Below are positions 17,238-56,376 of a stretch of 64,000 nucleotides of DNA, one piece after another; position 1 is the first letter of the stretch; each line of letters begins with the position of its first letter. The position numbers and the translations under genes are program-made. The DNA lies in the NCBI GenBank assembly GCA_947632735.1, contig CANRQG010000001.1:3903-67902 (forward strand), given 5' to 3'. The stretch is from an uncultured Bacilli bacterium (GTDB taxonomy: Bacteria; Bacillota_I; Bacilli_A; RF39; UBA660). A model generated the notes under the pieces. The model was given only the letters and a program-made list of their open reading frames with translations, had not been told where the DNA came from and ran no database searches.

Positions 17238-17241
17238 TTAG

Positions 17242-18015: not shown

Positions 18016-18045
18016 AAAGCAAACAAAGAGATAGCGAGGTAATTT

Positions 18046-33701: not shown

Positions 33702-33992
33702 TTATAATTCTTTTCTAATAATATTCTCAATATTTAAAACTTCATTGTCTTTATTTACAAAGTTTATTTCAAAGCCACATTCTTTAGCGATATTAACTAA
33801 AGTCTTAAAATCAGGTTCTCTATATCCTGTCTCATAACCACTTATCGTTGTATTAGAAATATTACATCTCTTAGCTAATTCCAGTTGTGAAAGACCAGCC
33901 ATTTTTCTCATCGTTTTAATAAACTTACTTATCATATCATCACCTGAAAACATTTTCGCATAATGCGTAATATTTTTCTTGACTTTTCGCAA
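33702..33992 (-). CDS. XRE-family HTH transcriptional regulator
   Basis: LSQLELAKRCNISNTTISGYETG HTH. Confidence 0.6.
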   Translation of the reverse strand: MRKVKKNITHYAKMFSGDDMISKFIKTMRKMAGLSQLELAKRCNISNTTISGYETGYREPDFKTLVNIAKECGFEINFVNKDNEVLNIENIIRKEL

Positions 33993-34035
33993 ATCGCGTA
34001 TTAATATCTAATTAGGTATGCTAAACGCGTAATAG
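33950..34035. promoter_or_regulatory. Divergent promoter region with three (A/C)GCGTA(A/T)TA repeats overlapping a consensus promoter
   Basis: TTGACT at 33979-33984, 17-nt spacer, TAATAT at 34002-34007. gcgtaata at 33965-33972, cgcgtatta at 33995-34003, cgcgtaata at 34026-34034. CGCAT-a-ATGCG palindrome. Confidence 0.45.
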
Positions 34036-34053: not shown

Positions 34054-34734
34054 ATGAAAAATAGTAAGATATATCTAATAATTTTTGTTAGTATGCTTTT
34101 GGGTATATTAATATCCATAAACTTTTCCTATGCTTTAGCTGAAAGTCTTATTGATAGTAAAAATGTTTATTATGAAGATAACTCTAGTTTAGGCTTTACC
34201 AATGTCCAAGATGCGATAGACGGTACTTGTCTAAAGTTTGACAATGCGCTTTCTAATTTAAAACAAGAACTAATAAACCAAACATATCCTATTGGAAGTA
34301 TTTATATCAGTACAACGCTTAAAACTATAGAAGAAGTGAACAGTAAAATAGGAGGCGAATGGGAGGTTTATGCCAAAGGACAAACTTTGGTTGGAATAGA
34401 TACAAATCAAAAGGAGTTTAATAGCGTTGAAAAAATAGGAGGAGAAAAGACTCATACCCTAACAATAGAAGAGATGCCAAGCCATACTCATATTCAAAAT
34501 GCTCATAGTCATATTGTTATGCAAGACTTAACAGGTGGAGCTGTAGGTTTATATCCTGGCAGTATGCAAGAAGATAGCTTGATTATTAAGCCTGAATCTT
34601 GGCAAATTGGTCTACGTTCTCAGACTCTAATCACAGGAAACACAACCGCCACCAACCAAACAACCGGTGGCAGTAAAGAACATAATAACCTTCAACCCTA
34701 CATTGTTGTTTATATGTATAAAAGAATAAAATAA
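34054..34734 (+). CDS. Phage tail-collar domain protein (MdpB / 'microcystin-dependent protein' family), signal-anchored
   Basis: GGEKTHTLTIEEMPSHTH plus NLQPYIVVYMYKRI are hallmark tail-collar motifs. Confidence 0.55.
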   Translation: MKNSKIYLIIFVSMLLGILISINFSYALAESLIDSKNVYYEDNSSLGFTNVQDAIDGTCLKFDNALSNLKQELINQTYPIGSIYISTTLKTIEEVNSKIGGEWEVYAKGQTLVGIDTNQKEFNSVEKIGGEKTHTLTIEEMPSHTHIQNAHSHIVMQDLTGGAVGLYPGSMQEDSLIIKPESWQIGLRSQTLITGNTTATNQTTGGSKEHNNLQPYIVVYMYKRIK

Positions 34735-34744
34735 CTAGAAAGTA

Positions 34745-34775
34745 GCTAACACTTTCTTTTTTTTTAAAATATGTT
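34745..34775 (+). terminator. Rho-independent terminator
   Basis: GAAAGT-agctaaca-CTTTC with a T9 run. Confidence 0.5.
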
Positions 34776-34808
34776 ATAATTTAATTGATAAAAGAGGGTG
34801 TTTAAAAA

Positions 34809-35987
34809 ATGCTAAAGTTTGATTTTTTCACTTATACCAAAAATTACATTACTAAGAATGATTTAGCTGACTTACTTGATAAAAAAACAGAGATTTTACA
34901 AAAGTTTAATACTAGTAATATGATAGGGTGGACTAAATATCCTAGTAATGAAACAATTGAAAAATTAATTGAAACTAGTAATAAAATAAAAGCTAGCTCC
35001 AATTGTCTAGTCGTACTAGGAATTGGCGGCTCCTTTCTAGGAAGTTATGCTTTTCATAATGCCTTTAAAAAATATTTTAATGACTCTAGTTTTGAAATAA
35101 TATATGCAGGGACTAATCTTTCAAGTAATTATTTAAATGATTTAATAGACTATATAAAAAATAAAGAAATTACTCTAAATGTCATTAGTAAAAGTGGTAC
35201 CACCTTAGAAGTGATGTTAGCGTATAAAGTCTTAAAAAATCTTTTAGAAGAAAAATATTCTAAAGAAGAAGCTCAAAAAAGAATTTTCATAACTACTAGT
35301 GAAGATAATGACTTATCTAAAGAAGTAGAAGAAGAAAATCTCTTTCTAATACCTGATGATATTGGAGGTCGTTATTCTTTTATAACTCCAGCTCATCTTT
35401 TACCATTATCTCTAAATTACGATATAAGAAACATCCTCGATGCTTACTTTGAAGGACTAACCTTAATTGATGAAGCTTATACTTATGCCTGCATTAGACA
35501 TCTTCTCTTTAAAAAAGGCTTTTATGTTGAAAATTTTTCAATTTATGAAGAAAGTCTTTCTGCTTTTACTGAATGGCTAAAACAATTATTTGCGGAAACT
35601 GAAGGTAAAAACTCTAAAGGCATTTTACCAATATCCACTATAAATACTAGAGATTTACATTCTCTAGGCCAATTCATTCAAGATGGAAATAAAATTCTCT
35701 TTGAAACCTTTATCAAAATAGCTAAATCTTCTTCCTTAACCATAAATAATAAAGAGTTACATATAATTAATAACATAGTAGAAGATTCTGTTATAAAAGC
35801 TCATAGTAAAGGTAATGTTGCCTGTAACATTATTGAATTAGATTACCTATCTCAAGAAAACATTGCTAAATTATTAGCTTTCTTTGAACTAAGCGCTGCC
35901 TATAGTGCTTACTTATTTGAAGTAGAGCCCTTTAATCAACCAGGTGTTGAAATCTATAAAAAAGAAGTTAAAGAAAATCTAAACTAA
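34809..35987 (+). CDS. pgi: Glucose-6-phosphate isomerase (short bacterial/archaeal-type)
   Basis: VVLGIGGSFLGS and DIGGRYSFITPAHLLP sugar-isomerase motifs. Confidence 0.55.
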   Translation: MLKFDFFTYTKNYITKNDLADLLDKKTEILQKFNTSNMIGWTKYPSNETIEKLIETSNKIKASSNCLVVLGIGGSFLGSYAFHNAFKKYFNDSSFEIIYAGTNLSSNYLNDLIDYIKNKEITLNVISKSGTTLEVMLAYKVLKNLLEEKYSKEEAQKRIFITTSEDNDLSKEVEEENLFLIPDDIGGRYSFITPAHLLPLSLNYDIRNILDAYFEGLTLIDEAYTYACIRHLLFKKGFYVENFSIYEESLSAFTEWLKQLFAETEGKNSKGILPISTINTRDLHSLGQFIQDGNKILFETFIKIAKSSSLTINNKELHIINNIVEDSVIKAHSKGNVACNIIELDYLSQENIAKLLAFFELSAAYSAYLFEVEPFNQPGVEIYKKEVKENLN

Positions 35988-36015
35988 TTACTTCTAAAAA
36001 TTATCTAAAAAGGAA

Positions 36016-36648
36016 ATGCTTATGAAAAAAAATCTTAAAATAACTATTAGTATCTTTATATTTTGCTTTATTTTAATCCTTATTTTTGTTATGTCTAATA
36101 AAAGTAAAAATTTTGATAATATGATTTATAACTTTATAATCTCTTTTCGTTCTCCTTTTTTAGATAACTACTTTAAATTTATTACTCGTTTTGGTAATAC
36201 CAATACCATAATAATTATCCTTCTTCTTTTTATCCTTCTTTTTAGAGATAAAAAAAGCTTTCTTTTAACTATAAGTACTACTTCTTGTGTAATAGTAAAC
36301 TCCCTAGTAAAACAGCTTATTAGAAGAAAGCGCCCTAATATTTTACGCTTAATAAAACAGGGTGGTTATTCCTTTCCAAGCGGTCACGCTATGATATCTA
36401 TTTGTCTGTATGGTTACTTACTATACTTAGTTAATAAAAATATTAAAAACAAAATAGTTCGTCTTCTTTCAAATATCTTCTTAATAATACTCATCTTTTC
36501 TTTAGGAATTAGTAGAATTTATGTCGGTGTCCATTTCGCGACCGATGTAATTGCCGGCTATTTACTAGGCCTAGTTATATTACTAGTAGTAATTAATTAT
36601 CCTAATAAATCTAAGGAGCTAAGATATGTTAAAAATAATAGTAACTAA
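36016..36648 (+). CDS. PAP2-family phosphatase (undecaprenyl-pyrophosphate / PgpB-like)
   Basis: KRPN...PSGHA...SRIYVGVHFATDV tripartite PAP2 motif. Confidence 0.7.
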   Translation: MLMKKNLKITISIFIFCFILILIFVMSNKSKNFDNMIYNFIISFRSPFLDNYFKFITRFGNTNTIIIILLLFILLFRDKKSFLLTISTTSCVIVNSLVKQLIRRKRPNILRLIKQGGYSFPSGHAMISICLYGYLLYLVNKNIKNKIVRLLSNIFLIILIFSLGISRIYVGVHFATDVIAGYLLGLVILLVVINYPNKSKELRYVKNNSN

Positions 36649-37264
36649 TTTTGAAAATCTAATTAATGAAGAAGAAGCTATTTCTACTAATACGATGCTT
36701 TTAATAGATAACTTAAGAAGAAAAAACTACCATCTTTTAGTCACAACCCATCGTGATTTTAGAGATGTCCTTTCCTATAATAAATCATATCCATTTATAG
36801 ATTATATTATTTCCTTATCAGGCTCCATTATTTTTGATGTCAATAAAAATAAAATTATTAGTAAGAAAAATATCTCTTCTAAAGAGCTAAAACAAATAGA
36901 AAAATTATTTCCTAAAAAAGACTTAGAACTATCTTCTTATGAAGACAAAATCTATCAAATAAAAATAAAAAACACTTCTCTTTTAGCTAATCTAGAAACT
37001 CTTACTGCCATCAATATTGATAGAGATTTATTTCTTACTTCTAATAAAATAAATATGAGGCAAGCTTTAGAAAAGATAATTCAAAATAAAAAATATTCTC
37101 TATCCGTAATTGCTTATGACATAGCTGACTATAGTTTATTTCCCCTTAGCTCTGAAAATTATATTTTAAAAAAAGCTGATAAAAATCTAAAAAAATTGCT
37201 AAAAAGAGAAAAAAATTATATTATAGAAGAAAATATTGAAGAAATTCTTTCTAAGTTTCTTTAA
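36626..37264 (+). CDS. Hypothetical protein, HAD/Cof-like topology but with a degenerate motif I
   Basis: Weak; VTNFENL appears in place of DxDGTL. Confidence 0.2.
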   Translation: MLKIIVTNFENLINEEEAISTNTMLLIDNLRRKNYHLLVTTHRDFRDVLSYNKSYPFIDYIISLSGSIIFDVNKNKIISKKNISSKELKQIEKLFPKKDLELSSYEDKIYQIKIKNTSLLANLETLTAINIDRDLFLTSNKINMRQALEKIIQNKKYSLSVIAYDIADYSLFPLSSENYILKKADKNLKKLLKREKNYIIEENIEEILSKFL

Positions 37265-37282
37265 TCAACTAGGAGGCCTTTT

Positions 37283-38905
37283 ATGGGTGATAAGAAAAAA
37301 ATATTCATAATCATAATCTCAATACTAATAATCATTCTAATTACTTATTTTAGTTACACAAATAAGAAAGAATTAGCTAAAGGTACTAAAGATATTGATT
37401 GGATAAGTGAAAACGTTGAATTAGTTAAAGATAAATCATTAGGAAAAAATATCTACAAAGTCTATAAAAATAGTGATATATCTATTTATAATTTAAAATA
37501 TCAAAAAGTTATTACTAAAAAAATTAAAGCTTTATTTCAAAATAGTAAAGATGAAATTTTAATTATTTATAACCCATATGGGACTAATTCCTTAAGTGTT
37601 AATGTCTTATTTAAAGATAACTCTTTTGAACAACTAAAGTATGAAATAACTTCTAAAAGTCAAACTTTTTCTAGAAAAATAACTTCTAAGAATAAAAATA
37701 ATATGTATGAGCTTATCGGTCTATATCCTGGCGAAAGTAATAAAATAAAATTAACTATTAAAGAAGATTCTAAAACCAAAGCATATGACTTTAAAATAGA
37801 TTTAGAAGATATTGAAATAAACGCAACTAAGAAATTACAAGTAGAAAATGGAAGTAGTACTACTAAACAAAATTCTGACTTTTTCATTATGCTAGGTAAT
37901 GAAACAGACTATCAAAATTACATAGCTTTATACGATAATAACGGTATTATTAGAAGTGAAATTCCTATCAAAGAAAAAACTGCTAAAGACTTAATAATAA
38001 AAGATAAATATATGTACTTTAATATATCTAAAACCGAAATAATCAAATTAAGTAATACGGGAGAAATAACTAATATCTATAAAACTTCTAAATATCGAAT
38101 AGAAAGTAATTATCAAATTTATAATGATGACTTATACTTTTTCGCAACAGATATAACTAAAAATACCGAGAAAAATATTTTATTAAAAATTAATACAAAT
38201 ACTAACGAAGTAACTGAAGTTTTATCCTTAGATAAAATCTTTGAAGAATACATTCCACTATGTGCTAAAGAAGAAAATAAACCCCTTGATTACTTAAATA
38301 TTAATTCCTTTACCATAATAGATAATAACCTTTTTATAAGTAGTAAAGAAACATCTTCAATTATAAAAATAAATAACATTTTTGAAGAACCACAAATAGA
38401 GTATATTATTAGTAATGACTTATTTTGGCAAGAAACACCTTTTAATAACTTAGTCTTAACGAAAAAAAATGACTTTAAAATTCACGTTGGTCAAAATAGT
38501 TTTCAAATTCTAAAAAGTGATGAGAAAAGTATTTATTACGTAGTCCTTTTAGATAGTAATTATGGTAATTCACCTACTAGAAAAGACTTTGATTATAGTA
38601 CTATTGATATTAAAAATACTAATTCTTATCAAGGTGATAATTCTTACTACTATGTTTATAAAGTTGATGAAACAAATAAAGACTTTGAACTAATTGATAG
38701 TATGCCTTTAGAATATTCTCCACTTTATGGTAATTGTCAAAAACTATCAAACTATAATATCTTAGTAAATAATGCCTCTAAAGGAATATTCTCAGAATAC
38801 GATAAAGACCATAACTTAATTAGAAAATATACTGCTAAAGTAAATAAAAACTATATTGAAAAAATAATCAAACTATCTTTTGAAAACTATTGGTTTTCTT
38901 CTTAA
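37283..38905 (+). CDS. Membrane-anchored extracellular hypothetical protein (540 aa)
   Basis: N-terminal TM, then a beta-rich Asn/Tyr-rich domain. No motif recognised. Confidence 0.3.
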   Translation: MGDKKKIFIIIISILIIILITYFSYTNKKELAKGTKDIDWISENVELVKDKSLGKNIYKVYKNSDISIYNLKYQKVITKKIKALFQNSKDEILIIYNPYGTNSLSVNVLFKDNSFEQLKYEITSKSQTFSRKITSKNKNNMYELIGLYPGESNKIKLTIKEDSKTKAYDFKIDLEDIEINATKKLQVENGSSTTKQNSDFFIMLGNETDYQNYIALYDNNGIIRSEIPIKEKTAKDLIIKDKYMYFNISKTEIIKLSNTGEITNIYKTSKYRIESNYQIYNDDLYFFATDITKNTEKNILLKINTNTNEVTEVLSLDKIFEEYIPLCAKEENKPLDYLNINSFTIIDNNLFISSKETSSIIKINNIFEEPQIEYIISNDLFWQETPFNNLVLTKKNDFKIHVGQNSFQILKSDEKSIYYVVLLDSNYGNSPTRKDFDYSTIDIKNTNSYQGDNSYYYVYKVDETNKDFELIDSMPLEYSPLYGNCQKLSNYNILVNNASKGIFSEYDKDHNLIRKYTAKVNKNYIEKIIKLSFENYWFSS

Positions 38906-38916
38906 ATGGTGATTTT

Positions 38917-39765
38917 ATGAAATTAATTGTAAAAAATGAAGCAACTCTCTTAGCCTATCTATATGAAAATCTCCCTATGTCAAAGAAAAAAATAAAAAAG
39001 TATTTAACTCTAGGCTCTATTTTCATTAATAATACTAAAGTCCAAAAATATGATTATAAGCTATATCCTGGTATGACTATTTTTATAGATACCAAAGCTA
39101 AAAAGAAACATACTCTTCCTTTTGATATTATCTATGAAGATAATCATATTATAGTTATTAATAAACCTAGTGGTCTTTTAACTATCGCAACAGCTAAAGA
39201 AAAAGAAAAAACACTTTATCATATTCTAAGAGAATACCTAATTCAAAATAAAATATCTAAAAATCTTTTTATTGTCCATCGTCTTGATAAAGATACAAGT
39301 GGCCTAGTAATTTTTGCGAAAGATGAAAAAACTAAAAATCTGCTTCAAGATAACTGGAATGAATTAGTCCTGCTCCGGGAATATTGTGCGGTGATTTATG
39401 GCAACCTCCAAGAGAAAAAAGGCCGTATAGAACAAAATTTACTAGAAACAAAAACAAATCTTGTTTACATTTCTAAAAATAAAGATGGAAAAAAAGCTAT
39501 TACTGACTATGAAGTTCTAAAAGAAAATGCTAATTACACACTTTTAGATATAAAAATTCATACCGGTCGAAAAAATCAAATCCGTGTAGCTTTCAGTAGC
39601 TTAAATCATCCTATTGTTGGAGATAAAAAATATGGTCTAAAAGAAAAAAATATTCCTAGACTCTATCTTCACGCTAATAGATTAAAACTATATTACCCTT
39701 ATCTAAAAAAAGAACTTCTTTTTGAAATACCTATTCCTAAAGAATTTAAAAATCTAGTTAAATAA
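38917..39765 (+). CDS. RluA-family pseudouridine synthase
   Basis: HRLDKDTSGLVIFAKD catalytic-Asp motif; N-terminal S4-like region. Confidence 0.75.
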   Translation: MKLIVKNEATLLAYLYENLPMSKKKIKKYLTLGSIFINNTKVQKYDYKLYPGMTIFIDTKAKKKHTLPFDIIYEDNHIIVINKPSGLLTIATAKEKEKTLYHILREYLIQNKISKNLFIVHRLDKDTSGLVIFAKDEKTKNLLQDNWNELVLLREYCAVIYGNLQEKKGRIEQNLLETKTNLVYISKNKDGKKAITDYEVLKENANYTLLDIKIHTGRKNQIRVAFSSLNHPIVGDKKYGLKEKNIPRLYLHANRLKLYYPYLKKELLFEIPIPKEFKNLVK

Positions 39766-39776
39766 AGGAGAAATAA

Positions 39777-40955
39777 ATGAAAAAGAAACTTATCATTTTA
39801 TTAGTAATAATACTCTTAGGCTTTCTTGGCTTTGCCATTTATAAAAGTTATTTTCTAAGAGAAAAACCAAAAAGTACCGCTAAAAAGAAAACTGAAGAAA
39901 AAATTCCTGATGATGTCTTAGAAAAATATAAATCACTACTTTTTGAAGATTATTATGAAGATGCTTTAAAAGTAGTAAATAAAATGTCTTTAGAAGAAAA
40001 AGTAGGCCAAATCTTCCTAGTAAGATATGACGTTAATAAAGTAGTTGAAGAAAAGTCTTATTATCCAGGAGGTTACATTTTATTTGCTAAAGACTTTGAA
40101 AATCATACTAAAGAAAGTATTAAAGAAGAAATAGATAATGACCAAAATCTAAGTAAATACCCACTGATAATTGCGGTTGACGAAGAGGGAGGAACCGTTA
40201 CTAGAGTTAGTCGCTATGAAGAACTTCGTGAATCAAAATTTCCATCACCTCAAGAAATATATAACGAAGGTGGTTATGAATTACTAAAAGAAATTGAAAA
40301 AGAAAAAGCTAATTTATTATTAAGTTTAGGCATCAATACTAATTTAGCTCCTGTAGCGGATGTTTCTACTGACCCAAATGACTTTATTTATGAAAGAAGC
40401 TTTGGTAAAAATGCTGAAGAAACAGCTGAATATATAAAGAAAATGGTTGAATATAGTAATGAAAATCATATTAATTCAACTCTAAAACACTTCCCAGGTT
40501 ATGGAAATAATGTTGATACCCATACTGGAGTAGCGATAGATGAAAGATCTTATGAAAACTTTGTAGAAAACGACTTTCTCCCATTCAAAGCTGGAATAGA
40601 AGCTAAAGTTCCTAGCATTCTTGTAAGTCATAACATTGTCGAACAAATAGACCAGGACTATCCATCATCTTTAAGTGCTAAAGTTATAGGTGAATTAAGA
40701 AATACCTTAGGCTTTAGTGGAATTATTATGACAGATGACCTAGCTATGGATGCCGTAAAATCTTATGTTGAAGATTCATCTGCTGCCACTCTTGCTTTAC
40801 AAGCCGGAAATGATATGATAATTACTAGTGACTTTATAACAATGTATAATGAAGTGCTAAATGCTGTAAAAGATGGTATAATAGATGAAAATATTTTAAA
40901 TGAAGCCGTAATAAGAGTAACTGCTTGGAAATACTATTCACATCTTTATTACTAA
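39777..40955 (+). CDS. GH3 beta-N-acetylhexosaminidase-like (NagZ-like), membrane-anchored
   Basis: KHFPGYG...VDTHTG and ...MTDDLAMDAV motifs of the GH3 N-terminal domain. Confidence 0.7.
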   Translation: MKKKLIILLVIILLGFLGFAIYKSYFLREKPKSTAKKKTEEKIPDDVLEKYKSLLFEDYYEDALKVVNKMSLEEKVGQIFLVRYDVNKVVEEKSYYPGGYILFAKDFENHTKESIKEEIDNDQNLSKYPLIIAVDEEGGTVTRVSRYEELRESKFPSPQEIYNEGGYELLKEIEKEKANLLLSLGINTNLAPVADVSTDPNDFIYERSFGKNAEETAEYIKKMVEYSNENHINSTLKHFPGYGNNVDTHTGVAIDERSYENFVENDFLPFKAGIEAKVPSILVSHNIVEQIDQDYPSSLSAKVIGELRNTLGFSGIIMTDDLAMDAVKSYVEDSSAATLALQAGNDMIITSDFITMYNEVLNAVKDGIIDENILNEAVIRVTAWKYYSHLYY

Positions 40956-40981
40956 AAATAAAAAAGAAAAGGAATGATACA

Positions 40982-42364
40982 ATGAATGATAAAAATTTAT
41001 TTACAAATTATCAAAAATACTTAAACAAAGAAGTAACCCTAGAAGGCTGGATAAAGAACCATCGTAAACAAAAAGAATTTGGTTTTATATCTTTCTCTGA
41101 CGGTACTTACTTTACTCAAATTCAAATAGTTTATGACAATAACTTAGATAACTTTGAAGAAATTACCAAGTTTCATATCGGAAGTTCTATCCAAGTAACA
41201 GGAACGGTTGTCAAGTCACCAAAAGAAAATCAACCATTTGAAATACAAGCTAGTAGTATATGCCTACTTGGTGATTGTCCTGAAGATTATCCAATTCAAC
41301 CTAAAAAACATAGTCGTGAATTTTTAAGAGAACAAGCCTATCTTCGTCCAAGAACAAATCTTTTTCAAGCTGTTTTCCAAATACGTAGCAAAGCTGCCTT
41401 CGCTATTCACGAATACTTTCAAAAAAGAGATTATGTTTACTTCCACGCTCCATTAATTACCGCAAGTGATTGTGAAGGAGCAGGGGAGATGTTCCACGTA
41501 ACAACCTTCGATTTAGAAAATGTTCCCAAAAATAAAGATGGTTCAGTTGACTATTCCAAAGACTTCTTTACTAAAGCCGCTTCTTTAACTGTTTCAGGAC
41601 AACTACAAGCAGAAACATTTGCTTTAGCTTATAAAAATGTCTATACCTTTGGACCTACCTTTAGAGCAGAAAATTCTAATACTAAGACACACGCTTCAGA
41701 ATTTTGGATGATAGAACCTGAAATAGCCTTTTGTGATTTAGAAAAAGATATGGATATTATGGAAGATATGCTTAAATACGTTGTAAAATATGTCCTAGAT
41801 AATTGCCGAGTAGAACTCGAATTTTTAGATAGTTTTGTAGAAAAAGGTCTTATTGAAAAATTGCAAAATCTAGTTAAAAAGAAAGCTATTCGTATAACCC
41901 ATTATCAAGCTATTAAAGAGTTAAAAGAATCAGGCAAAAACTTCGAATTTACTCCTGAATATGGTGAAGACTTAGCTCGAGAACACGAAAAATATTTAAC
42001 TGAAGAAAAATATAATGCTCCTGTTTTTGTCTATAACTGGCCTAAAGATATCAAAGCCTTTTATATGCGTTTGAATGATGACAACAAAACTGTCGCAGCC
42101 GTTGACTTACTAGTCCCAGGTTCCGGTGAATTGATGGGTGGTTCTCAAAGAGAAGAAAGATATGATATTCTTTTAAATCGTATGCAAGAAATGAATACAG
42201 GAGTTGAAGAACTAGATTGGTACTTAAAACTAAGAATATATGGAGGTTGCGTTCATTCCGGCTTTGGTATGGGCTTTGAAAGACTAATTATGTATTTAAC
42301 TGGTGTAGAAAATATAAGAGATGTTATTCCATATCCAAGAACACCAGGTAATTGCGAATTTTAA
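40982..42364 (+). CDS. asnS: Asparagine--tRNA ligase
   Basis: N-terminal OB-fold segment, class II motifs (FRAE..., GGSQREER, GFGMGFERL). Confidence 0.85.
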   Translation: MNDKNLFTNYQKYLNKEVTLEGWIKNHRKQKEFGFISFSDGTYFTQIQIVYDNNLDNFEEITKFHIGSSIQVTGTVVKSPKENQPFEIQASSICLLGDCPEDYPIQPKKHSREFLREQAYLRPRTNLFQAVFQIRSKAAFAIHEYFQKRDYVYFHAPLITASDCEGAGEMFHVTTFDLENVPKNKDGSVDYSKDFFTKAASLTVSGQLQAETFALAYKNVYTFGPTFRAENSNTKTHASEFWMIEPEIAFCDLEKDMDIMEDMLKYVVKYVLDNCRVELEFLDSFVEKGLIEKLQNLVKKKAIRITHYQAIKELKESGKNFEFTPEYGEDLAREHEKYLTEEKYNAPVFVYNWPKDIKAFYMRLNDDNKTVAAVDLLVPGSGELMGGSQREERYDILLNRMQEMNTGVEELDWYLKLRIYGGCVHSGFGMGFERLIMYLTGVENIRDVIPYPRTPGNCEF

Positions 42365-42390
42365 GAGAGGAAACTCTCTTTTTTTTGCTA
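42364..42390 (+). terminator. Rho-independent terminator after asnS
   Basis: AGAGAG-gaaa-CTCTCT with a T8 run. Confidence 0.55.
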
Positions 42391-42466
42391 GCAAAATGAA
42401 AATAGTATGCGAGCACATAGATTATAAAAAATGGTATATGCTAATTATATGTAAGGTGATAGCACT

Positions 42467-42628
42467 ATGAAAGATATAATTTATATACGAATAGATAAAG
42501 AGATAAAGCAAAAATTAGATATGCTAGCTTTAAAAGATAATAGAAGCTTAAATAATTATATTGTTACACTTTTAACAAAATTTGTTGAGAATAAAGAAAA
42601 AGATTTAAAAGAATTATTAGAAAATTAG
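42467..42628 (+). CDS. Small ribbon-helix-helix (CopG/Arc-like) protein, 53 aa
   Basis: Not in the ORF track. MKDIIYIRIDKEIKQKLDMLALKDNRSLNNYIVTLLTKFVENKEKDLKELLEN has the beta-strand/helix/helix pattern and the RSLN motif of RHH antitoxin/repressors. Confidence 0.45.
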   Translation: MKDIIYIRIDKEIKQKLDMLALKDNRSLNNYIVTLLTKFVENKEKDLKELLEN

Positions 42629-42646
42629 TAATAGAAGGCTGATAAA

Positions 42647-44158
42647 ATGAAAAAGAAAATTAAAGATTTTCATAAATATATGGTTGGATGCATTATTGAA
42701 ATAATCATAGTAGGAAGTATCTCTGTTTATGCAGTGACTACTATAATTGATAGTAAAGAAGTTAGTTATGATAAGAAAAATAGTAGTGGTAGTTATGATA
42801 ATGTCCAGGATTCAATAGATGAGCTATATCAAAGATATAAAGATTTATCAGGTGAACAAGATACTATTTATACTGAAGAGATTTTAAATGGGGCAGACCC
42901 AGTATTAGGAGATGAAATGATACCAGTAACACTCGACAGTAAAGGAAATGTAAAGTACGCTAGTCTTTACACACCGTGGTATTCTTACGAAGAAAAGAAG
43001 TGGGCGAATGCTGTTATATTGGTAAAGAATCCAAGTAAACAATATAAAACAGGCGATACTATTTTAGAAAAAGACATAGAAAGCTACTTTGTGTGGATAC
43101 CTAGATATAAATACAGGATATGGGATTTAGGAAATTATACAAGTTTGTTTAGTTTAGATGGTAGAAGTGGTACAACTAAATTAACTGATAATTCAACAGG
43201 AAAAACTGATTTATCAAGTTTAAGAAATATTGCAGGAAATGCTCGATTAATTGATATAGTATTTGAAAATAAAAACACTACGCCATCTACTACATTAGCA
43301 GTTGGTTCATATTATACGCATCCCGCCTTTACCAATTTTGGGGTAAGTGGTTTATGGGTAGGAAAATTTGAAACTGGTGGAGATTCTAACAAAATTATTG
43401 TAAAGCCAGAAACTGAACCCTGGAAAAATGAAACAGTAGGAACATATTGGAACACTTTATTCAATTATAAAAATATATTAGGTGCACATAATGACAATTT
43501 AGATCCTCATATGATGAAAAATACAGAATGGGGGGCAGTGACTTATCTTTCACATTCTATATATGGACTAGGCGGTGAGATAAATATTAATAATAATTCT
43601 GATTGTAAAACGGGTTATTCCGCAACAGGAAAAACAAATCAAAATACTTTTAGAGGAGAATTGGGAAACACTGAGGATACAACACAACCCTATAACACGC
43701 CAACAGGATATTTAGCAAGTTCAACAGGAAATATAACCGGTGTGTATGATATGAGTGGTGGAAGTAATGAGTATATGGCAGCTTATATAGAAGAATATGG
43801 TGTTTTGAGTAAAAATTCAGTATCTAGTGGCTTAACGACAACTGATTTAGCTAAGACAAAATATTTTGATAAATATTCAAAAAACAGTACTACAACTTCA
43901 TATAATTTAAGGATTATAGGAGATGCAACAGGAGAACTAGGACCTTTTTATCTCTACTATGCTACAGATAGTGATCAGCGTCAATTTAATGGCTGGTATT
44001 CTGATTTTTCGTTTTTTATAGATCCTAGTAATCCCTGGTTTGTCAGAGGTGGTGGATGGATGAGCGATGGTTTTGCAGCTGGACAGTTCTATTTCTATTC
44101 AAGTACTGGTGGAAAATCATCAATAACTGGTGTACGGTTATGCTTGTCAGTATCATAA
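42647..44158 (+). CDS. Signal-anchored surface protein with a C-terminal FGE-sulfatase (formylglycine-generating-enzyme-like / DUF323) domain
   Basis: C-terminus ...WFVRGGGWMSDGFAAGQFYFY...ITGVRLCL resembles the RGGSW...GFR end of FGE-sulfatase domains. The N-terminal ~60 aa are paralogous to the tail-collar protein at 34054. Confidence 0.45.
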   Translation: MKKKIKDFHKYMVGCIIEIIIVGSISVYAVTTIIDSKEVSYDKKNSSGSYDNVQDSIDELYQRYKDLSGEQDTIYTEEILNGADPVLGDEMIPVTLDSKGNVKYASLYTPWYSYEEKKWANAVILVKNPSKQYKTGDTILEKDIESYFVWIPRYKYRIWDLGNYTSLFSLDGRSGTTKLTDNSTGKTDLSSLRNIAGNARLIDIVFENKNTTPSTTLAVGSYYTHPAFTNFGVSGLWVGKFETGGDSNKIIVKPETEPWKNETVGTYWNTLFNYKNILGAHNDNLDPHMMKNTEWGAVTYLSHSIYGLGGEININNNSDCKTGYSATGKTNQNTFRGELGNTEDTTQPYNTPTGYLASSTGNITGVYDMSGGSNEYMAAYIEEYGVLSKNSVSSGLTTTDLAKTKYFDKYSKNSTTTSYNLRIIGDATGELGPFYLYYATDSDQRQFNGWYSDFSFFIDPSNPWFVRGGGWMSDGFAAGQFYFYSSTGGKSSITGVRLCLSVS

Positions 44159-45852: not shown

Positions 45853-47799
45853 ATGCTAGGAACAATAAAAGAAATTATCGATAATAGCGTTATAATTAAA
45901 CTTAATATTGATATTAATGAACAGCCAAACCTTATTAATATTCACGTTGTCTTTGATGATGGCTCATCTAGAAAAGTAGTAGGTGAGATAGCTAACGTTA
46001 ACCAAAATGAAATGGTTGTTAATATTGTAGGTGAAATTGATAATAATAGCTTTATCCCAGGGTCTAGTTCCAAGCCATCTTTTAAATCATCCATTCGAAT
46101 AATTGATGCCAGCGAGTTAGAACTTCTCCTTGGCCCTCAAGAAGTAGCTCCAGGAAAAACTAATTTTGGTACCAGTAATGTTTATTCAGGTTATAAAATA
46201 AATGTTGAAGTAAATGAATTTTTCAATACTCACTTTGCCATTTTAGGAAATAGTGGTGCCGGAAAAAGCTGTACCGTTGCATCCATCTTGCAAAAATTGT
46301 TCACTAGTAGTAAAACTCCACCAATAAATTCCAATCTTTTCTTCTTTGATGCTTATGGTGAATATACCAATGCCTTTAGTAAGCTCCACGAAGTAAACCC
46401 TCTTTTAAACTACAAATCATATACAACCAACACTATTGAACCAGAATGTGAAATACTTCGCATTCCACCTTGGCTACTTGATGTAGATGATTTAGCTTTA
46501 CTTTTAGATGTAACAACTCCAACTCAAATACCAATGATCGAAAAAACACTTAAATTAGTACCTATCTTAACAGGTAGTAGTGAAAATGTTATAAAAAGAA
46601 AAAATGATATAATTGCTAGAGCTCTACAAGACATTCTATTATCTGGAAATGATTCAACTAAAATACGTGACCAAGTAATAGGTGTATTAACAAAATTTAA
46701 TACTCCAACATTAAATCTAGAAACACAAATTGTTCAACCAGGTTATACTAGAACTTTTAAACAATGCTTATTCGTTGATAAAAGTGGAAAAATGCAAGAA
46801 ATGGAATTAGTCGTAGAATTTGTTCGTGGCTATATTCTTGAAGTAGCTGAAGAAATTCCTAAAGAAGAGCTAAATCCATACTATACTTTATCAGATTTAG
46901 AGTTAGCAATGGAATTTGCTTTAATTAGTGAAGGTATTTTAAAAAGTGATAAAGTCTTTGATTATGCTAATATTATTAGTGTTAGACTTCATTCCCTAGC
47001 AACGGGTGATTATAAATCATATTTTGAATATCCAACCTTTGTAAATAAAGACCAGTATATTGAAGACTTAATGACTAATGAAAATAATCAAAAATGTCAA
47101 ATAATAAACTTTAATATTAACTATGTTGATGACCGTCTAGCTAAAGTTTTTACTAAAATCTTATCAAGAATGCTTTTCTTAAAATCAAGTACTACAAAAC
47201 CACGTGGTAGTAGAGCTTTCCATATAATTATTGAAGAGGCCCATCGTTATGTTCAACACGATAGTGATGTTGAAATTTTAGGTTATAATATCTTTGAAAG
47301 AATCACAAAAGAGGGTCGTAAATATGGAACTTTCTTAGCCTTAATCACTCAAAGGCCAAGTGAATTATCTGATACTTGTATTTCTCAATGTGCAAACTTT
47401 GTCGTATTAAGAACTCTTCACCCCGTTGATTTAAAATATATTAAAGAAATGGTTCCTAACGTTTCTTCAGAAATTGTTTTACAATTAAAAAATCTTAAAC
47501 CAGGTAACTGCATAGCCTTTGGTTCAGCCTTTAAAGTTCCTATTCCTATGTATATAGATTTACCAAACCCTCGTCCTTTAAGTAATAATGTTAACTTAAA
47601 TGACATTTGGTATCGCCAAATCTCTTCTCCTGGTGCTAAAGAAATTCAACCTGGTATAAATCCTGGCATAAATCCCGGTATAAATCAAAGCATAACCCCA
47701 GGTATAAATGGTATGGTAAACCCCGTTGCTTATCAGCAAGTCCCTCAAGCTCCAGTAGCTAGTACTCCTCAAGTACCAAATGGACAACCAATTAGTTAG
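45853..47799 (+). CDS. HerA/DUF87-like P-loop ATPase with an N-terminal barrel domain and a C-terminal Pro/Gly-rich (PGIN)n low-complexity tail
   Basis: Walker A ILGNSGAGKSCT, Walker B-like FHIIIEEAHRY, N-terminal HAS-barrel-like segment. Tail PGINPGINPGINQSITPGINGMVNP. Confidence 0.5.
   Translation: MLGTIKEIIDNSVIIKLNIDINEQPNLINIHVVFDDGSSRKVVGEIANVNQNEMVVNIVGEIDNNSFIPGSSSKPSFKSSIRIIDASELELLLGPQEVAPGKTNFGTSNVYSGYKINVEVNEFFNTHFAILGNSGAGKSCTVASILQKLFTSSKTPPINSNLFFFDAYGEYTNAFSKLHEVNPLLNYKSYTTNTIEPECEILRIPPWLLDVDDLALLLDVTTPTQIPMIEKTLKLVPILTGSSENVIKRKNDIIARALQDILLSGNDSTKIRDQVIGVLTKFNTPTLNLETQIVQPGYTRTFKQCLFVDKSGKMQEMELVVEFVRGYILEVAEEIPKEELNPYYTLSDLELAMEFALISEGILKSDKVFDYANIISVRLHSLATGDYKSYFEYPTFVNKDQYIEDLMTNENNQKCQIINFNINYVDDRLAKVFTKILSRMLFLKSSTTKPRGSRAFHIIIEEAHRYVQHDSDVEILGYNIFERITKEGRKYGTFLALITQRPSELSDTCISQCANFVVLRTLHPVDLKYIKEMVPNVSSEIVLQLKNLKPGNCIAFGSAFKVPIPMYIDLPNPRPLSNNVNLNDIWYRQISSPGAKEIQPGINPGINPGINQSITPGINGMVNPVAYQQVPQAPVASTPQVPNGQPIS
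47650..47709 (+). repeat. Five imperfect 12-bp tandem repeats (cctggtataaat) encoding (PGIN)n
   Basis: Read directly: cctggtataaat / cctggcataaat / cccggtataaat / caaagcataacc / ccaggtataaat. Confidence 0.7.
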
Positions 47800-49034: not shown

Positions 49035-49257
49035 CGAAAGCAAGTGCGAAAGACGGAATATTTTGGAATTTAAAGAGAGCTTGTGTTTGGTGTAAACAAG
49101 TAAGGAAGAAATATTTAGATCACTTTCAAGTTGCGATTTATGGATAAGATAAATACGATTAAACACGTTATAGTTTACAAAAGATAAGTTATTACTTATG
49201 AATTAAGGTGGTACCACGAACTATTCGTCCTTACTAGGATGAATGGTTTTTATTTTT
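49035..49257 (+). promoter_or_regulatory. T-box riboswitch leader (probable Ile specifier AUC) with terminator and antiterminator
   Basis: AATTAAGGTGGTACCACG at 49201-49218 matches the T-box consensus AATTAGGGTGGTACCGCG 16/18. Terminator AUUCGUCC-uuacua-GGAUGAAU plus a U-run at 49223-49257. AGAGAG distal motif and a ...uagAUCAc... candidate specifier upstream. Promoter TTGTCA at 49001. Confidence 0.6.
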
Positions 49258-49271
49258 TGAAAGGAGAATTT

Positions 49272-50222
49272 ATGTTAATAAATATAATTTTATTGATATT
49301 GGGGTTCGTAATTTTAATAAAAGGTGCCGACTTCTTTGTTGATGGAGCTAGCTCAGTTGCCCAAAACTTTAAAGTGTCAAAGATGTTAATAGGTTTAACT
49401 ATTGTAGCTTTTGGTACCTCTCTTCCTGAGTTCGCTGTTAGTGTAAAATCCATACTCTTAAAAAGCGGCGATTTAGTTTTAGGCAATGTAATAGGTAGTA
49501 ATATCTTAAATATTTTACTTATTTTAGGCTTATCAGCAATGTTTCATCCACTTACTGTAAAAAATAATACTGTAAAAAAAGAACTTCCGATAGCAATGCT
49601 AATTACTGTTCTTTTCGCTATTTTATTATCTGATAATATTTTTAATACAAAGGTTTTTAATGAATTCACAAGAAGTGATGGCCTTATTTTACTCTTATTC
49701 TTTACCGTATTTATCTATTATCTTATAAGTATGCTTCGTAATAAAGTTGCAAACTCTGAAAGTAAATCACCTTTGTCTTTACAAAAAGCCATTGCTTTTA
49801 CAGTTCTAGGTATCATTGCTATTATGTTTGGTAGTAGTATGGTCGTTAATCATTCTACACAACTAGCCCGTCTTTTAGGCGTAAGTGAAAGAATGATAGC
49901 TTTAACTATCGTTGCCCTAGGAACTTCTTTACCAGAGTTAGTAACATCCTTGACGGCTACAAAAAAAGGCGAATATGATATCGCTATCGGAAACGTTGTT
50001 GGAAGTAACATTTTCAATATTGGTATTGTTATTGGACTACCGATAGCCTTATTTGGTGGAGTCTCAAACATAACCTTTAGCTATATTGATATTGTTACTA
50101 TGATTTTATCAGCTATACTTTTATTTATGTTTTCCTTTAATGATTATAAAATATCTAAAAAAGAGGGACTCATCTTTCTTTTACTATTCATTAGCTACTA
50201 TGGCTATGTAATTTTCGCTTAG
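49272..50222 (+). CDS. Ca2+/cation antiporter (CaCA/YrbG family), copy 1
   Basis: Two alpha-repeat motifs GTSLPEL and GNVIGSNIFNI. RBS aaggag. Confidence 0.75.
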   Translation: MLINIILLILGFVILIKGADFFVDGASSVAQNFKVSKMLIGLTIVAFGTSLPEFAVSVKSILLKSGDLVLGNVIGSNILNILLILGLSAMFHPLTVKNNTVKKELPIAMLITVLFAILLSDNIFNTKVFNEFTRSDGLILLLFFTVFIYYLISMLRNKVANSESKSPLSLQKAIAFTVLGIIAIMFGSSMVVNHSTQLARLLGVSERMIALTIVALGTSLPELVTSLTATKKGEYDIAIGNVVGSNIFNIGIVIGLPIALFGGVSNITFSYIDIVTMILSAILLFMFSFNDYKISKKEGLIFLLLFISYYGYVIFA

Positions 50223-50230
50223 GAGGAATT

Positions 50231-51184
50231 ATGCTTTTAAAAACAACACTCCTTATTATAGGATTTATTATTTTAATAAAAGGTGCTGACATTTTAATTG
50301 ATGGAGCAAGTTCCATTGCGACCAAATTCAAAGTATCCAAACTCTTAATAGGACTTACCATAGTCAATTTAGGAACAGGGGCTCCTGAGTTAGCCATAGG
50401 TTTTAAAGCCATTCTCTCCGGAAATGGCGATATCGTCTTAGGTAATGTAATAGGCAGTAATATCTTAAATATTCTCCTGATAGTTGGTGTATCATCATTA
50501 TTTAGAAGTATCACCGTTAGAAGTAGTACCGTAAAAAAAGAATTACCAATTGCCCTTTTAATAACTCTCCTTTTTTCACTTCTTATTTCTGATAATCTTT
50601 TTGATTCAAGTATGGTAAATAGTTTTACTAGACGTGAGGGAATAATCCTTATTCTCTTCTTCTCGATATTTATTTATTATTTATTTACGATGTATCATAA
50701 TAAAATTGATGAAGACCAAGAAACTATATCTGTTTTTTCCAATAAAAGAAGTATCATTTATATAATATTAGGAATAATTTGTGTTATTTTAGGTAGTAAC
50801 TTAGTAGTAGATAACGCTGTTAGTCTAGCTCAAAAAATAGGTATTTCTGAAAGAATAATTGCTCTAACCATCATAGCTTTAGGCACATCTCTTCCAGAAT
50901 TAGTAACGTCAATAACTGCTACTAAAAAAGGTGAATTTGATATAGCCATAGGTAATATTGTAGGAAGTAATATCTATAACATCGGACTTGTCCTAGGTTT
51001 ACCAGTTGCATTGTTTGGAACTATCACAAACATAACTGTTAATTATATTGACGTTGCTACAATGATTTTATCAGCTATATTACTTTATATGTTTTCTTTT
51101 AATGATTACAAAATTACTAAAAAAGAAGGTATTGTCTTTCTCTTCTTATTCGCAATTTACTATGCATATATAATTTTTTTCTAA
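50231..51184 (+). CDS. Ca2+/cation antiporter (CaCA/YrbG family), copy 2 (tandem paralog)
   Basis: Same architecture; about 55% identical pattern to copy 1. Confidence 0.75.
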   Translation: MLLKTTLLIIGFIILIKGADILIDGASSIATKFKVSKLLIGLTIVNLGTGAPELAIGFKAILSGNGDIVLGNVIGSNILNILLIVGVSSLFRSITVRSSTVKKELPIALLITLLFSLLISDNLFDSSMVNSFTRREGIILILFFSIFIYYLFTMYHNKIDEDQETISVFSNKRSIIYIILGIICVILGSNLVVDNAVSLAQKIGISERIIALTIIALGTSLPELVTSITATKKGEFDIAIGNIVGSNIYNIGLVLGLPVALFGTITNITVNYIDVATMILSAILLYMFSFNDYKITKKEGIVFLFLFAIYYAYIIFF

Positions 51185-54391: not shown

Positions 54392-54664
54392 ATGGATATT
54401 GATTTTTCAAAAATAAATGATATATATGGAAAAGATATTTTATATTCCTGTGGAGAAAACTTTGATGATTTAGTAGAAAATATCACTATATTAAAAAAAC
54501 TAGGTATTGAAAATATCTATGAAGTAGTAGAACGCTATCCCTTACTATTTTTAGACGATTCCAAAGATTTTAGCTCTAAAATAAATAATTTTTTCCTACA
54601 CCTTGGTACAAACTATAAAGAAATACTTGAAAATAATATGACTTTATGGGAGGAACTATTATGA
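54392..54664 (+). CDS. Small mTERF-like repeat protein
   Basis: LKKLGIENIYEVVERYPLLFLDDSKDF resembles an mTERF repeat unit (...LG.s...i..iv.r.P.ll..s.e...). Confidence 0.3.
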   Translation: MDIDFSKINDIYGKDILYSCGENFDDLVENITILKKLGIENIYEVVERYPLLFLDDSKDFSSKINNFFLHLGTNYKEILENNMTLWEELL

Positions 54665-56376
54665 ATGAATATGACCTAGTAAAACTTTTTTTAAAATATC
54701 ATATTGACTATGAAAGTCTAAAAGAAATAACTATTACTAATGATATTAACAATTTAGAAGAAATATTAAGATATCTAATTAATGAAAAAAAGATAAGTCC
54801 CAAAAATTTAGCCAAATCTCCCAGCATTTTTAATACCAAAAGTATCACAATAAAAGATAACTTTTCCTTCTTAGAAGAAGTAAATTTAAAAAAAGCCCTA
54901 AGTAATTGTCTCCACGTTTTAAATACCAATAATGACAAATTAAAAGAAACCTATTACTATGTCCTAGAAAATTACGGTCCAAGTTATCTTGAAAAAATAA
55001 CTTCTATTTTAAGTGTTCCTGTTGAAAGAATTAAATTAATCGAATTATCTTTTAGTGATACTTTATCTAAAGAAAACATCCTAAGTGCCGCTACTAGTAA
55101 ATTTGATATATTCGATTTAACCAAAATAATTAATACCTGCATAAATGAAAAAATAAAAATACTACCAACTGTTTTTCTAAGAAATTCCGATGAAATAAAA
55201 GCTCTTTCAACCATCTGTCATCAGAAAAAAGTATCTCTAAATACTACTATGTTTCATCGTAGTCCTGATGAAGTAGAACAAATTATAAACTTTTGCCAAG
55301 AAAATTCTCTTGCTATACTAGGAGCTTACTTCTTAAGAAAACCTGATGAAGTAGAAGAAATAATTAATATTACCAAAAATATTTCCGACAAGCCTCTTAG
55401 TCTAGCTTTCAATAGAACTCCTAGTGAAGTAAAAGATATTATCAAAATCTGCCAAGAAGAACAAACACCTCTTACTTCCAATATGTTTTTACGTACTCCC
55501 GACGAAGTCAAAAAAATAATTAAACTATGTCAAAAAGAAAATATTCCCCTAACAGGTAGCCATTTCCAACAACCTTACCAAGACTTTGAAGATATCCTTG
55601 GCTATTGTCAAGAAAATAATCTTAATCTAACAGCGTCAATGCTTTTTCGTAAAAAAGACGAAATATCTTCCATTAGAAGTTTTTGCAACGAAAAAAATCT
55701 TCCTATCTATGAAACTATGTATAAAAGAACACCTAGTGAAGTAGAAGAAATTTTTAATTACTGTTCAAAAAATAATCTTTCCATAACACCAAATCTCTTT
55801 AGAAAAAAGCCCCACGAAACCACAACCATCATAACTACTTGTAAAAATTTAAAACTACCACCATCATCAGTAGTATTTAAAAGAACCCCTGATGAAATAA
55901 TTGATATAACTAGTATCTTTTTAAAATATTTTAAAACCCTTCCGATAAAAAATGCCTTTAATCAAAAACCAAAAGAAGTAGAAGATATAATAAAACTTTG
56001 CCTTAGCAAAAATATCGCAATAACAGGTACTCTTTTTCAAAAAAAAGCCCCAAGTATCAAAGATTCTATTGATTACTTAGAAAAAAATTACGGAGAAAAA
56101 TATTTAAAACCACTAATTATTATCAAAGACAAAAACCATCTAGCTAAAGTTTTTCCTCTCCTTGATAGCTTAGGCGTTCTAGATATCGTCATAAATAGTC
56201 CCAGTATTTTAACATTAACCGAAGAAGAAATAAAAGATAGAATTGCTTTTTTAGATAGAATAAATGAAAATATCGTTGTAGGAGAAACCTTTAATTCCCT
56301 TTTTGGCTTATCTAGAAAAAATTATCTTCTCCGAGTAGAAAAAGAAAATAATAAAGAAGGAGCCTTAACACTATGA
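54661..56376 (+). CDS. Tandem-repeat protein built of ~36-aa units (F.R.PDEV..II..C.....L.), mTERF-like
   Basis: At least 10 consecutive units, e.g. FLRNSDEIKALSTICHQKKVSLNTTM / FHRSPDEVEQIINFCQENSLAILGAY / FLRKPDEVEEIINITKN... / FNRTPSEVKDIIKICQEEQTPLTSNM / FLRTPDEVKKIIKLCQKENIPLTGSH. Confidence 0.35.
   Translation: MNEYDLVKLFLKYHIDYESLKEITITNDINNLEEILRYLINEKKISPKNLAKSPSIFNTKSITIKDNFSFLEEVNLKKALSNCLHVLNTNNDKLKETYYYVLENYGPSYLEKITSILSVPVERIKLIELSFSDTLSKENILSAATSKFDIFDLTKIINTCINEKIKILPTVFLRNSDEIKALSTICHQKKVSLNTTMFHRSPDEVEQIINFCQENSLAILGAYFLRKPDEVEEIINITKNISDKPLSLAFNRTPSEVKDIIKICQEEQTPLTSNMFLRTPDEVKKIIKLCQKENIPLTGSHFQQPYQDFEDILGYCQENNLNLTASMLFRKKDEISSIRSFCNEKNLPIYETMYKRTPSEVEEIFNYCSKNNLSITPNLFRKKPHETTTIITTCKNLKLPPSSVVFKRTPDEIIDITSIFLKYFKTLPIKNAFNQKPKEVEDIIKLCLSKNIAITGTLFQKKAPSIKDSIDYLEKNYGEKYLKPLIIIKDKNHLAKVFPLLDSLGVLDIVINSPSILTLTEEEIKDRIAFLDRINENIVVGETFNSLFGLSRKNYLLRVEKENNKEGALTL

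Follow-up and report, generated by a model that had tools for sequence, protein, structure and literature searches.

In the 64-kb window analysed here (64,000 nucleotides of contig CANRQG010000001.1 from an uncultured, low-GC Bacilli bacterium of the gut), two genes, designated A and B, encode predicted exported proteins in which different heads stand behind one conserved N-terminal segment. This segment appears to be a single copy of a repeat that is found in tandem in phage tail fibres. Together with the short helix behind it, the segment probably serves as an oligomerisation neck for heads resembling phage receptor-binding domains, a reading to which we assign a probability of roughly 0.55. 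Both genes are intact open reading frames (ORFs), each with a Shine-Dalgarno-like sequence. The two genes and their motifs are as follows, with positions counted from the first letter of the window.

34054..34734, + strand: gene A, predicted exported gp10-head protein, 226 aa (ORF; Pfam Gp10_C; 2120 homologues)
42647..44158, + strand: gene B, predicted exported protein with a C-type-lectin/formylglycine-generating enzyme (FGE) fold, 503 aa (ORF; at least 4950 homologues, few with a weak PF03781 match)
34141..34224, + strand: motif of A, residues 30-57, ESLIDSKNVYYEDNSSLGFTNVQDAIDG (BLASTP, hhalign, profile search)
42734..42829, + strand: motif of B, residues 30-61, VTTIIDSKEVSYDKKNSSGSYDNVQDSIDELY (BLASTP, hhalign, profile search)

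Homology of the N-terminal segments

An earlier note on this DNA had claimed that the two proteins share a conserved N-terminal segment and that their C-terminal domains are unrelated, and both claims stand. Direct comparison of A with B by BLASTP gave a single significant segment (A 26-56 / B 28-58), with 17/32 identical and 23/32 positive positions at E 2e-4 for a single comparison. No significant BLASTP similarity was observed between A and B outside the motif segment, and the folds of the C-terminal domains differ. When all 56 window ORFs of at least 100 aa were compared with one another by BLASTP, the A-B pair reached E 0.008, and all pairs ranking above it were obvious paralogues. Judged on the window alone, the likeness would be only moderately significant. 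A six-frame pattern scan of the 64 kb found two copies of the motif only, those of A and B.

Most of the listed members of the A family (2120) and the B family (at least 4950) carry the same N-terminal arrangement. The A-family pattern is ...S-Y-x-L-A-E-T-L-I-x-S-K-D-V-Y-Y-x-D-N-S-x-L-x-x-N-N-V-Q-x-A-I-D-G-T-C-T-K-F, and that of the B family is ...S-V-Y-A-V-x-x-I-I-E-S-K-E-V-x-Y-D-N-x-x-S-x-G-x-x-x-N-V-Q-x-S-I-D-E-L-Y. Motif alignments made from A-type and from B-type sequences separately matched each other in hhalign with a probability of 97.5% and E 6.9e-12. From this family-level match the two segments are judged to be homologous, with chance excluded. A chance or compositional resemblance between two ordinary signal peptides might be argued from the shortness of the pairwise match (32 aa) and from a window-only E value of just 0.008. 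However, the matching residues sit beyond the hydrophobic core, and the explanation is refuted by the family profiles and by the profile search described below, which draws thousands of proteins, most of them leaderless. We leave it practically no probability.

A single copy of a phage tail-fibre repeat

A 36-column profile was built from A- and B-family N-termini only and searched against 1.84 billion representative proteins. At E<=1e-3 it matched 4278 clusters (at 50% identity), of which 628 reached E<=1e-10; the motif is conserved well beyond the two genes. The best 150 matches were long proteins of up to 5298 aa, each with 3-52 matched stretches (best E 1.7e-293), and successive copies were mostly spaced by 31-40 residues. 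A hydrophobic N-terminus followed by an early motif was seen in 1/150 of them, and that start was unlike a signal peptide. These tandem proteins iterate ...A-E-D-V-T-Y-D-N-T-x-S-G-L-x-A-T-D-V-Q-x-A-I-D-E-L... in units of about 25-35 residues. From 711 distinct units the consensus A-x-x-[VI]-x-Y-D-N-T-x-S-G-L-x-A-T-[DN]-V-Q-x-A-I-D-E-[LVI] was derived, whose positions agree with those conserved in A and B.

In six tandem-repeat proteins the repeat itself matched PHROG 2137 'tail fiber protein' as well as further PHROGs of tail or baseplate proteins. With one tandem-repeat protein as query, 104 stretches were found on IMG/VR viral contigs, on which ORFs carry up to 10 repeat copies. Among eight tested IMG/VR ORFs, six matched tail-fibre or tail PHROGs via their other domains (tail-fibre/tail PHROGs matched: phrog_2137, 24210, 7760, 13892, 1101 and 6942). 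The earlier note had likened the motif to one of phage tail-fibre N-termini, and this likeness was borne out, as the profile retrieves tandem-repeat proteins on viral contigs that match tail-fibre PHROGs. The A/B segment would hence be one copy of this repeat. Tandem-repeat phage tail fibres (PHROG 2137 and others) have the same V-x-Y ... S-G-L ... [DN]-V-Q-x-A-I-D-E-L positions as A and B. They differ in having 3-52 copies and no leader, whereas A and B carry one copy each, not in tandem and directly behind a leader.

No Pfam or NCBIfam model was found for the motif when the N-terminal segments were searched, and the multi-repeat proteins gave just spurious sub-threshold Pfam matches (TBPIP, DUF2922). 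A PDB sequence search with the motif profile and a five-repeat protein returned nothing meaningful. The motif is a widespread repeat lacking a curated model and a solved structure, and its definition as a repeat family would improve the annotation of both phage tail fibres and these bacterial proteins. Among cultured phages, tblastn with one repeat protein as query gave no match, probably owing to the low-complexity filter, while a second repeat protein gave two weak matches, one of them a putative tail fibre of Yersinia phage fEV-1. When a 36-aa alignment was used on IMG/VR viral contigs, 71 pattern stretches were obtained and 0 were confirmed by tblastn, the query being very short.

The hydrophobic start as a predicted signal peptide

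34054..34140, + strand: residues 1-29 of A, predicted Sec signal peptide ending in ...SYALA before E (family logo)
42647..42733, + strand: residues 1-29 of B, predicted Sec signal peptide ending in ...SVYA before V (family logo)

Leader logos and run lengths, determined from 97 sequences of the A type and 98 of the B type, gave an n-region of net positive charge and an uncharged run with a median of 20-21 residues. At the A-family boundary, S-Y-[V/A/C]-[L/I/V]-A is followed by E, with Ala at -1 in 89/97 sequences; at the B-family boundary, where V follows S-V-Y-A, 85/98 sequences have Val at -3 and 87/98 have Ala at -1. The boundary between leader and motif is far better conserved than the hydrophobic core. 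Both families therefore display the features of Sec export and signal peptidase I processing, namely a positive n-region, an h-region and small residues at -3/-1. Neither a lipobox Cys nor a C-terminal LPXTG nor an N-terminal GFxxxE prepilin motif was present in the sequences of A and B, and a Cys near the leader end is unconserved in the A family. Because a conserved signal peptidase I pattern stands just before the motif, we infer that the hydrophobic segment is more likely a cleaved Sec signal peptide than an anchor, which would make the motif the mature N-terminus. Of the hydrophobic signal-anchor proposed in the earlier note, the hydrophobic start is retained and the anchor probably is not, the putative cleavage site lying directly before the motif.

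The main competing view is that the segment is an uncleaved type II signal-anchor, with motif and helix as the juxtamembrane stalk of a membrane-tethered fibre and the head on the cell surface. An uncharged stretch with a median of 20-21 residues could span a bilayer, residues 3-32 of A form one continuous helix in the AlphaFold2 (AF2) model, and no other anchor (no LPXTG, no conserved lipobox) is recognisable in A or B. For related orders of uncultured Bacilli, an absence of sortases or, in some families, of peptidoglycan is reported (PMC10868615), which also favours a tether of this kind. On the other hand, the core varies freely, and precisely at the boundary Ala at -1 and V/A/C at -3 have a conservation of about 90%, as is characteristic of a cleavage site rather than an anchor. 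We regard an uncleaved anchor as possible but doubtful, and continue with a cleaved signal peptide.

As a separate observation, residue 18 of B (42698-42700) is a Glu in the middle of the hydrophobic core (CIIEIIIVG), and the 99%-identical homologue P0001 has Gly at this position. The Glu might impair export.

The heads of A and B

34273..34728, + strand: residues 74-225 of A, Gp10_C head domain (Pfam; Foldseek; tblastn)
42854..44155, + strand: residues 70-503 of B, globular C-type-lectin/FGE-fold domain (AF2 model)

The heads of A and B are of known kinds: that of A is of the gp10 type, and that of B has the C-type-lectin/FGE fold seen in variable proteins of diversity-generating retroelements (DGRs). 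Protein A matched Pfam Gp10_C (PF21939) with 85.2 bits against a cut-off of 27, its residues 74-225 covering positions 2-139 of the 139 in the model. In Foldseek the AF2 model of A matched the T4 gp10 structures 2fl8, 5iv5 and 2fkk (E 5e-4 to 8e-4, probability 0.99), with low TM-scores (~0.2) that we attribute to the moderate confidence of the head in the model. The A head also matched structural or tail proteins in 640 phage records by tblastn. The alignments of A to gp10 (phmmer) and to PHROG 958 begin at A residue 37, inside the motif (gp10 positions 419 and 422), so that motif, helix and head look like one inherited fibre-tip unit. The likeness to the T4 gp10 C-terminal domain (PF21939; 2FKK, 5IV5) hence comprises the head and extends upstream into motif and helix. 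Unlike T4 gp10, A has a predicted signal peptide and no baseplate-binding N-terminal part, and it lies not within a phage tail or baseplate gene set but in a setting of housekeeping neighbours and a small helix-turn-helix (HTH) gene.

Protein B had no Pfam match at E<=1. The AF2 model of B, which is confident beginning with residue 70, matched TaqVP (5VF4), Treponema TvpA (2Y3C) and Bordetella phage Mtd (1YU0). By this model, B is taken to have a C-type-lectin/FGE fold, its closest counterparts being DGR variable proteins and not FGE enzymes. The FGE family PF03781 gave no match in B; few homologues have a precomputed match, and P0061 scored 14.4 bits against a cut-off of 23.3. FGE has a closely spaced catalytic cysteine pair in its C-terminal part. 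In contrast, the cysteines of B are three and far apart (C15 in the leader, ...NNSDCKTG... and ...VRLCLSVS). The original labels 'tail-collar' and 'FGE-like' are thus acceptable as fold names, with the correction that B is nearer to the DGR variable proteins than to the enzymes.

A portable module on several cargo families

By sequence comparison, the leader, motif and short helix are a swappable N-terminal unit on at least three cargo families. The B family was found at more than 570 places in species-representative genomes, several of its loci sharing one metagenome-assembled genome (MAG). All 80 listed B-family records are titled uncultured Bacilli, Tenericutes or Firmicutes; their sources are MAGs from the gut of rabbit ('Lapin'), mouse ('MGBC') or human ('Hadza'/'UMGS'), or MAGs whose source is unstated. 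In 1.1 Mb of related loci, which are cited below by L numbers, 64 of the 111 B-type ORFs carried the motif at the hidden Markov model threshold and a few more had it in diverged form. The remaining B-type starts are prepilin-type (GFTLIELL; TIGR02532 E 5e-8; PF07963), another leader with a beta-rich domain, or a plain hydrophobic segment. Behind these other leaders the B-type cargo begins directly at ...L-N-G-A-D-P-V-L..., without the motif. SipW/TasA-type signal peptides were suspected for the other leader classes, were unconfirmed by NCBIfam, and the label was dropped.

Similarly, A-type heads are found behind the module or behind pilin N-termini (PF07963; P0233, P0234), and some belong to phage-type proteins that lack a leader. 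A third cargo family, C (L057:8907-9812), has no Pfam match and 538 homologues, and among its 120 best members the module was present in 82 and pilin N-termini in three. The idea of different cargos displayed on a common scaffold, put forward in the earlier note, is therefore supported in two ways: a third family uses the module, and relatives exchange the module for other N-termini. The combination of a predicted Sec leader, one fibre repeat, a short helix and a phage-type head, on at least three cargos in cellular genomes, is not covered by the libraries searched. The abstracts of those DGR papers that a literature search returned contain no mention of a fibre-repeat leader.

Modular type IV pilins with adhesin modules, for example PilB/PilC of Streptococcus sanguinis, offer a parallel to the relatives in which a prepilin-type N-terminus is fused to an A, B or C cargo. 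Since such fusions exist, the cargos behave as display modules. Unlike these pilins, A and B of the window have no GFxxxE prepilin motif. Further arrangements were seen as well. Some proteins bear the motif at the extreme C-terminus, and in an L079 protein the N-terminal motif is separated from the B domain by an extra domain. A DUF87 (HerA-like) gene lies a few kb from the B-type array of L001.

Many B-type genes are immediately preceded, or overlapped, by a small gene of 136-203 aa. Its product starts with a leader, continues with a beta-rich domain and carries at its C-terminus a copy of the motif with two cysteines (YDN..S..C.DVQCALDELY).

Small upstream gene, examples: L004 9341-9931; L007 3-443; L016 2910-3353; L023 8000-8410

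This gene, present in many related loci, would suit a docking function, in which the motif lets exported cargos bind a motif-bearing partner and so form hetero-oligomers or attach to a base protein. However, the window has no small motif-bearing gene upstream, just a 53-aa ribbon-helix-helix (RHH)-like ORF before B. Moreover, the motif stacks in cis as tandem repeats in phage proteins, and fusions of the small-protein domain to a B domain without the motif suggest gene fusion or fission rather than an obligate complex. A docking tag is thus considered unlikely.

A putative oligomerisation neck

34204..34284, + strand: residues 51-77 of A, helix starting inside the motif, putative coiled-coil neck (AF2, predicted local distance difference test (pLDDT) ~80-88)

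The segment had been proposed as a targeting, anchoring or oligomerisation module. It does form a discrete module; nothing points to targeting or to wall or membrane anchoring, the motif being abundant in proteins that are never exported, and oligomerisation fits best among the three. In the AF2 model of A, the leader helix (residues 3-32) leads to a loop that a beta-bridge closes (V38-N50), and then to a helix (V51-T77) that runs into the head. In the model of B the helix spans residues 53-68. Both models thus have a beta-bridged loop and then a helix beginning at V-Q. In the A family, positions V51, I55, C59, F62, L66, L69, L73/74 and I77 are hydrophobic in nearly all members, and their 3-4 spacing looks typical of a coiled coil. 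One of these, C59 (34228-34230), is near invariant (39/40 A-family members) and occupies a core position of the post-motif helix.

We propose that the signal peptide, the single motif copy and the short amphipathic helix form a portable module placed before heads of the phage receptor-binding type. Upon export, the leader would be cut after A-L-A and before E in A, or after V-Y-A and before V in B. The loop and helix at the new N-terminus could then nucleate a short parallel coiled-coil neck, probably three-stranded as in the parent fibres, and the neck would gather the heads into a multivalent lectin-like or adhesin particle. Phage fibres are generally trimeric, and gp10 and Mtd are both trimers. 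Collectins and tetranectin likewise combine a coiled-coil neck with C-type lectin trimers; they have no sequence relationship to B, the B domain is much larger, and a B trimer is a proposal of the present analysis.

Several observations weigh against such a neck. In the monomer model of B, residues 1-43 are of low confidence and the motif has a pLDDT below 50. In most B-family members the post-motif helix has just about 9-12 residues, a short stretch for a stable coiled coil. TvpA is described as a monomer, and if so, the C-type-lectin fold itself needs no trimerisation. The h-region of about 20 residues is long enough to span a membrane as well. As for the phage ancestry, the link of A and B to the fibre repeat is drawn through the profile built in this analysis, and neither A nor B reached E<=0.01 against phrog_2137, a single unit of ~30 aa being too short to score.

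If the neck is real, little-known, uncultured gut bacteria would have domesticated a phage fibre building block for the general purpose of presenting exported binding domains, and the families would be natural candidates for host, glycan or cell adhesins.

Shuffling and variation in related loci

Two adjacent genes in L057 (8850-9110 / 9881-10141) with unrelated cargos have ~230 nt in common, comprising a G10 promoter, ribosome-binding site, leader and motif, at ~94% DNA identity. They diverge abruptly right after the motif (...NELYNN), which suggests recent module shuffling or gene conversion. The pair also bears on the idea that the 5' module is kept as a handle for cassette exchange or gene conversion in antigenic variation, the peptide having little structural role. 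Besides this pair, the occurrence of the families as multi-paralogue arrays in related loci speaks for it. However, the two window copies match at the DNA level by 74% over 39 nt, which is no better than chance repeats of the AT-rich window and too little for homologous recombination. The conservation across families is at the amino-acid level, with codons that differ, and the peptide is also conserved in phage fibres, where such a handle does not apply. We hold a purely recombinational role to be very improbable, and the structural neck remains our preferred explanation for the conserved peptide.

In 1.02 Mb of related loci, 46 runs of at least 8 G (G8-G11) were counted against 0.5 expected; none was poly-C, and all were on the coding strand of the family genes. 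Of these tracts, 39/46 lie between TTGAC/TTGAA-type -35 and TATAAT-type -10 hexamers. Most of these 39 stand before motif-bearing genes or genes of other putative surface proteins. About 35 tracts are located 27-115 nt upstream of family genes, and some others precede genes for Big_13 or ConA-like-lectin proteins.

Poly-G tracts, examples: L002 1955-1964; L057 8867-8876 and 9900-9909; L040 8324-8331

Phase-variable surface proteins with homopolymer tracts in the promoter spacer are known from Mycoplasma hyorhinis (vlp) and Neisseria (opc/porA). The related loci resemble them in having a homopolymer (G8-G11) between -35 and -10, and the poly-G spacers, as read from assemblies, have the layout expected of classical slipped-strand phase variation. 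Unlike these systems, A and B of the window have no poly-G tract upstream, and their upstream regions are ordinary.

Two B-family genes stand beside DGR cassettes.

L015: 1867-2016, 2226-2375 and 3392-4432, variable repeat (VR)/template repeat (TR) pair and RVT_1 gene
L006: 1795-1942, 2160-2307 and 3264-4358, VR/TR pair and RVT_1 gene

In both loci a 148-150-nt VR at the 3' end of the gene is followed by a downstream TR with 89% identity, and all internal mismatches are at adenines of the template. The VR/TR pair is followed by an RVT_1 reverse transcriptase bearing the IGNFTSQ...YMDD motifs. The VR and TR look much more GC-rich than their loci (~27.5% GC). By this anatomy the two B-family genes are identified as DGR targets. 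Protein B of the window has the C-type-lectin fold in common with the DGR variable proteins TaqVP, TvpA and Mtd. Unlike DGR systems, however, no direct repeat involving the B 3' end was found in the window and no ORF with reverse transcriptase motifs within the 64 kb, and the B 3' end is AT-rich, without the GC-rich segment common to VR/TR pairs. A DGR acting on this copy of B from within the window was rejected on the lack of a TR/VR repeat and of a reverse transcriptase; action of a remote reverse transcriptase elsewhere in the genome is possible.

DGR cassettes, poly-G tracts and module shuffling in the related loci suggest a rapidly varying surface repertoire. A leader with a single repeat may, tentatively, mark a large, undescribed superfamily in uncultured gut Bacilli with reduced genomes: exported receptor-binding proteins of phage origin, with at least three cargo families and thousands of members. 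Motif-boundary shuffling, poly-G on/off switching and DGR mutagenesis of some heads would vary these proteins and make them cellular, phage-derived variable surface receptors. This wider reading, drawn from the related loci rather than from the window, is put at clearly less than even odds.

Genomic setting and further features of the window

The window has a GC content of ~28%. Genes A and B are flanked and separated by ordinary chromosomal genes, which encode a GH25 muramidase, a YlmH-like protein, phosphoglucose isomerase (pgi) and a PAP2 phosphatase. Further neighbours encode an arylsulfotransferase-like protein, an RluA-type pseudouridine synthase, a GH3 hydrolase, asparaginyl-tRNA synthetase (asnS) and a PP2C phosphatase. 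No phage genes were found around or between A and B, and a small HTH gene accompanies the housekeeping neighbours. Because of this gene context, and of their leaders, A and B were rejected as prophage tail genes. The features close to the two genes are listed below.

33702..33992, - strand: small XRE-type HTH gene, divergent from A with a 62-bp gap (Pfam HTH_3, E 4e-16)
33979..34007, + strand: promoter-like candidate TTGACT-17-TAATAT upstream of A (consensus scan; regional count not above shuffled expectation)
42363-42380: terminator-like hairpin between asnS and the 53-aa RHH-like ORF
42467..42628, + strand: 53-aa RHH-like ORF, 19 bp upstream of B (read from sequence; weak Pfam HicB/RHH matches, E 1.3e-4)

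A small ORF divergent from the A-type gene was present in 3/3 independent A-type loci (the window, L002 766-1035 and L005 3189-3440). It is an XRE-type HTH gene in the window and, by precomputed Pfam, in L002. A general link of small HTH regulators to all family genes was rejected: A-type loci and a few of the B type show it, but most B-type upstream neighbours are unrelated.

Some features of the window lie apart from A and B. A cluster of paralogous ORFs at 11552-19143 has a common repeated ...INDGSTD... segment, and from this motif we take the cluster to be glycosyltransferase-like. The 648-aa ORF at 45853-47799 (+ strand) has a proline-rich tail carrying PGINPGINPGIN repeats. Two tandem paralogous genes with 64% protein identity occupy 49239-51184. 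Four imperfect 44-nt repeats, three of them spaced by 78 nt, were observed at 55264-55775 inside the ORF at 54646-56376.

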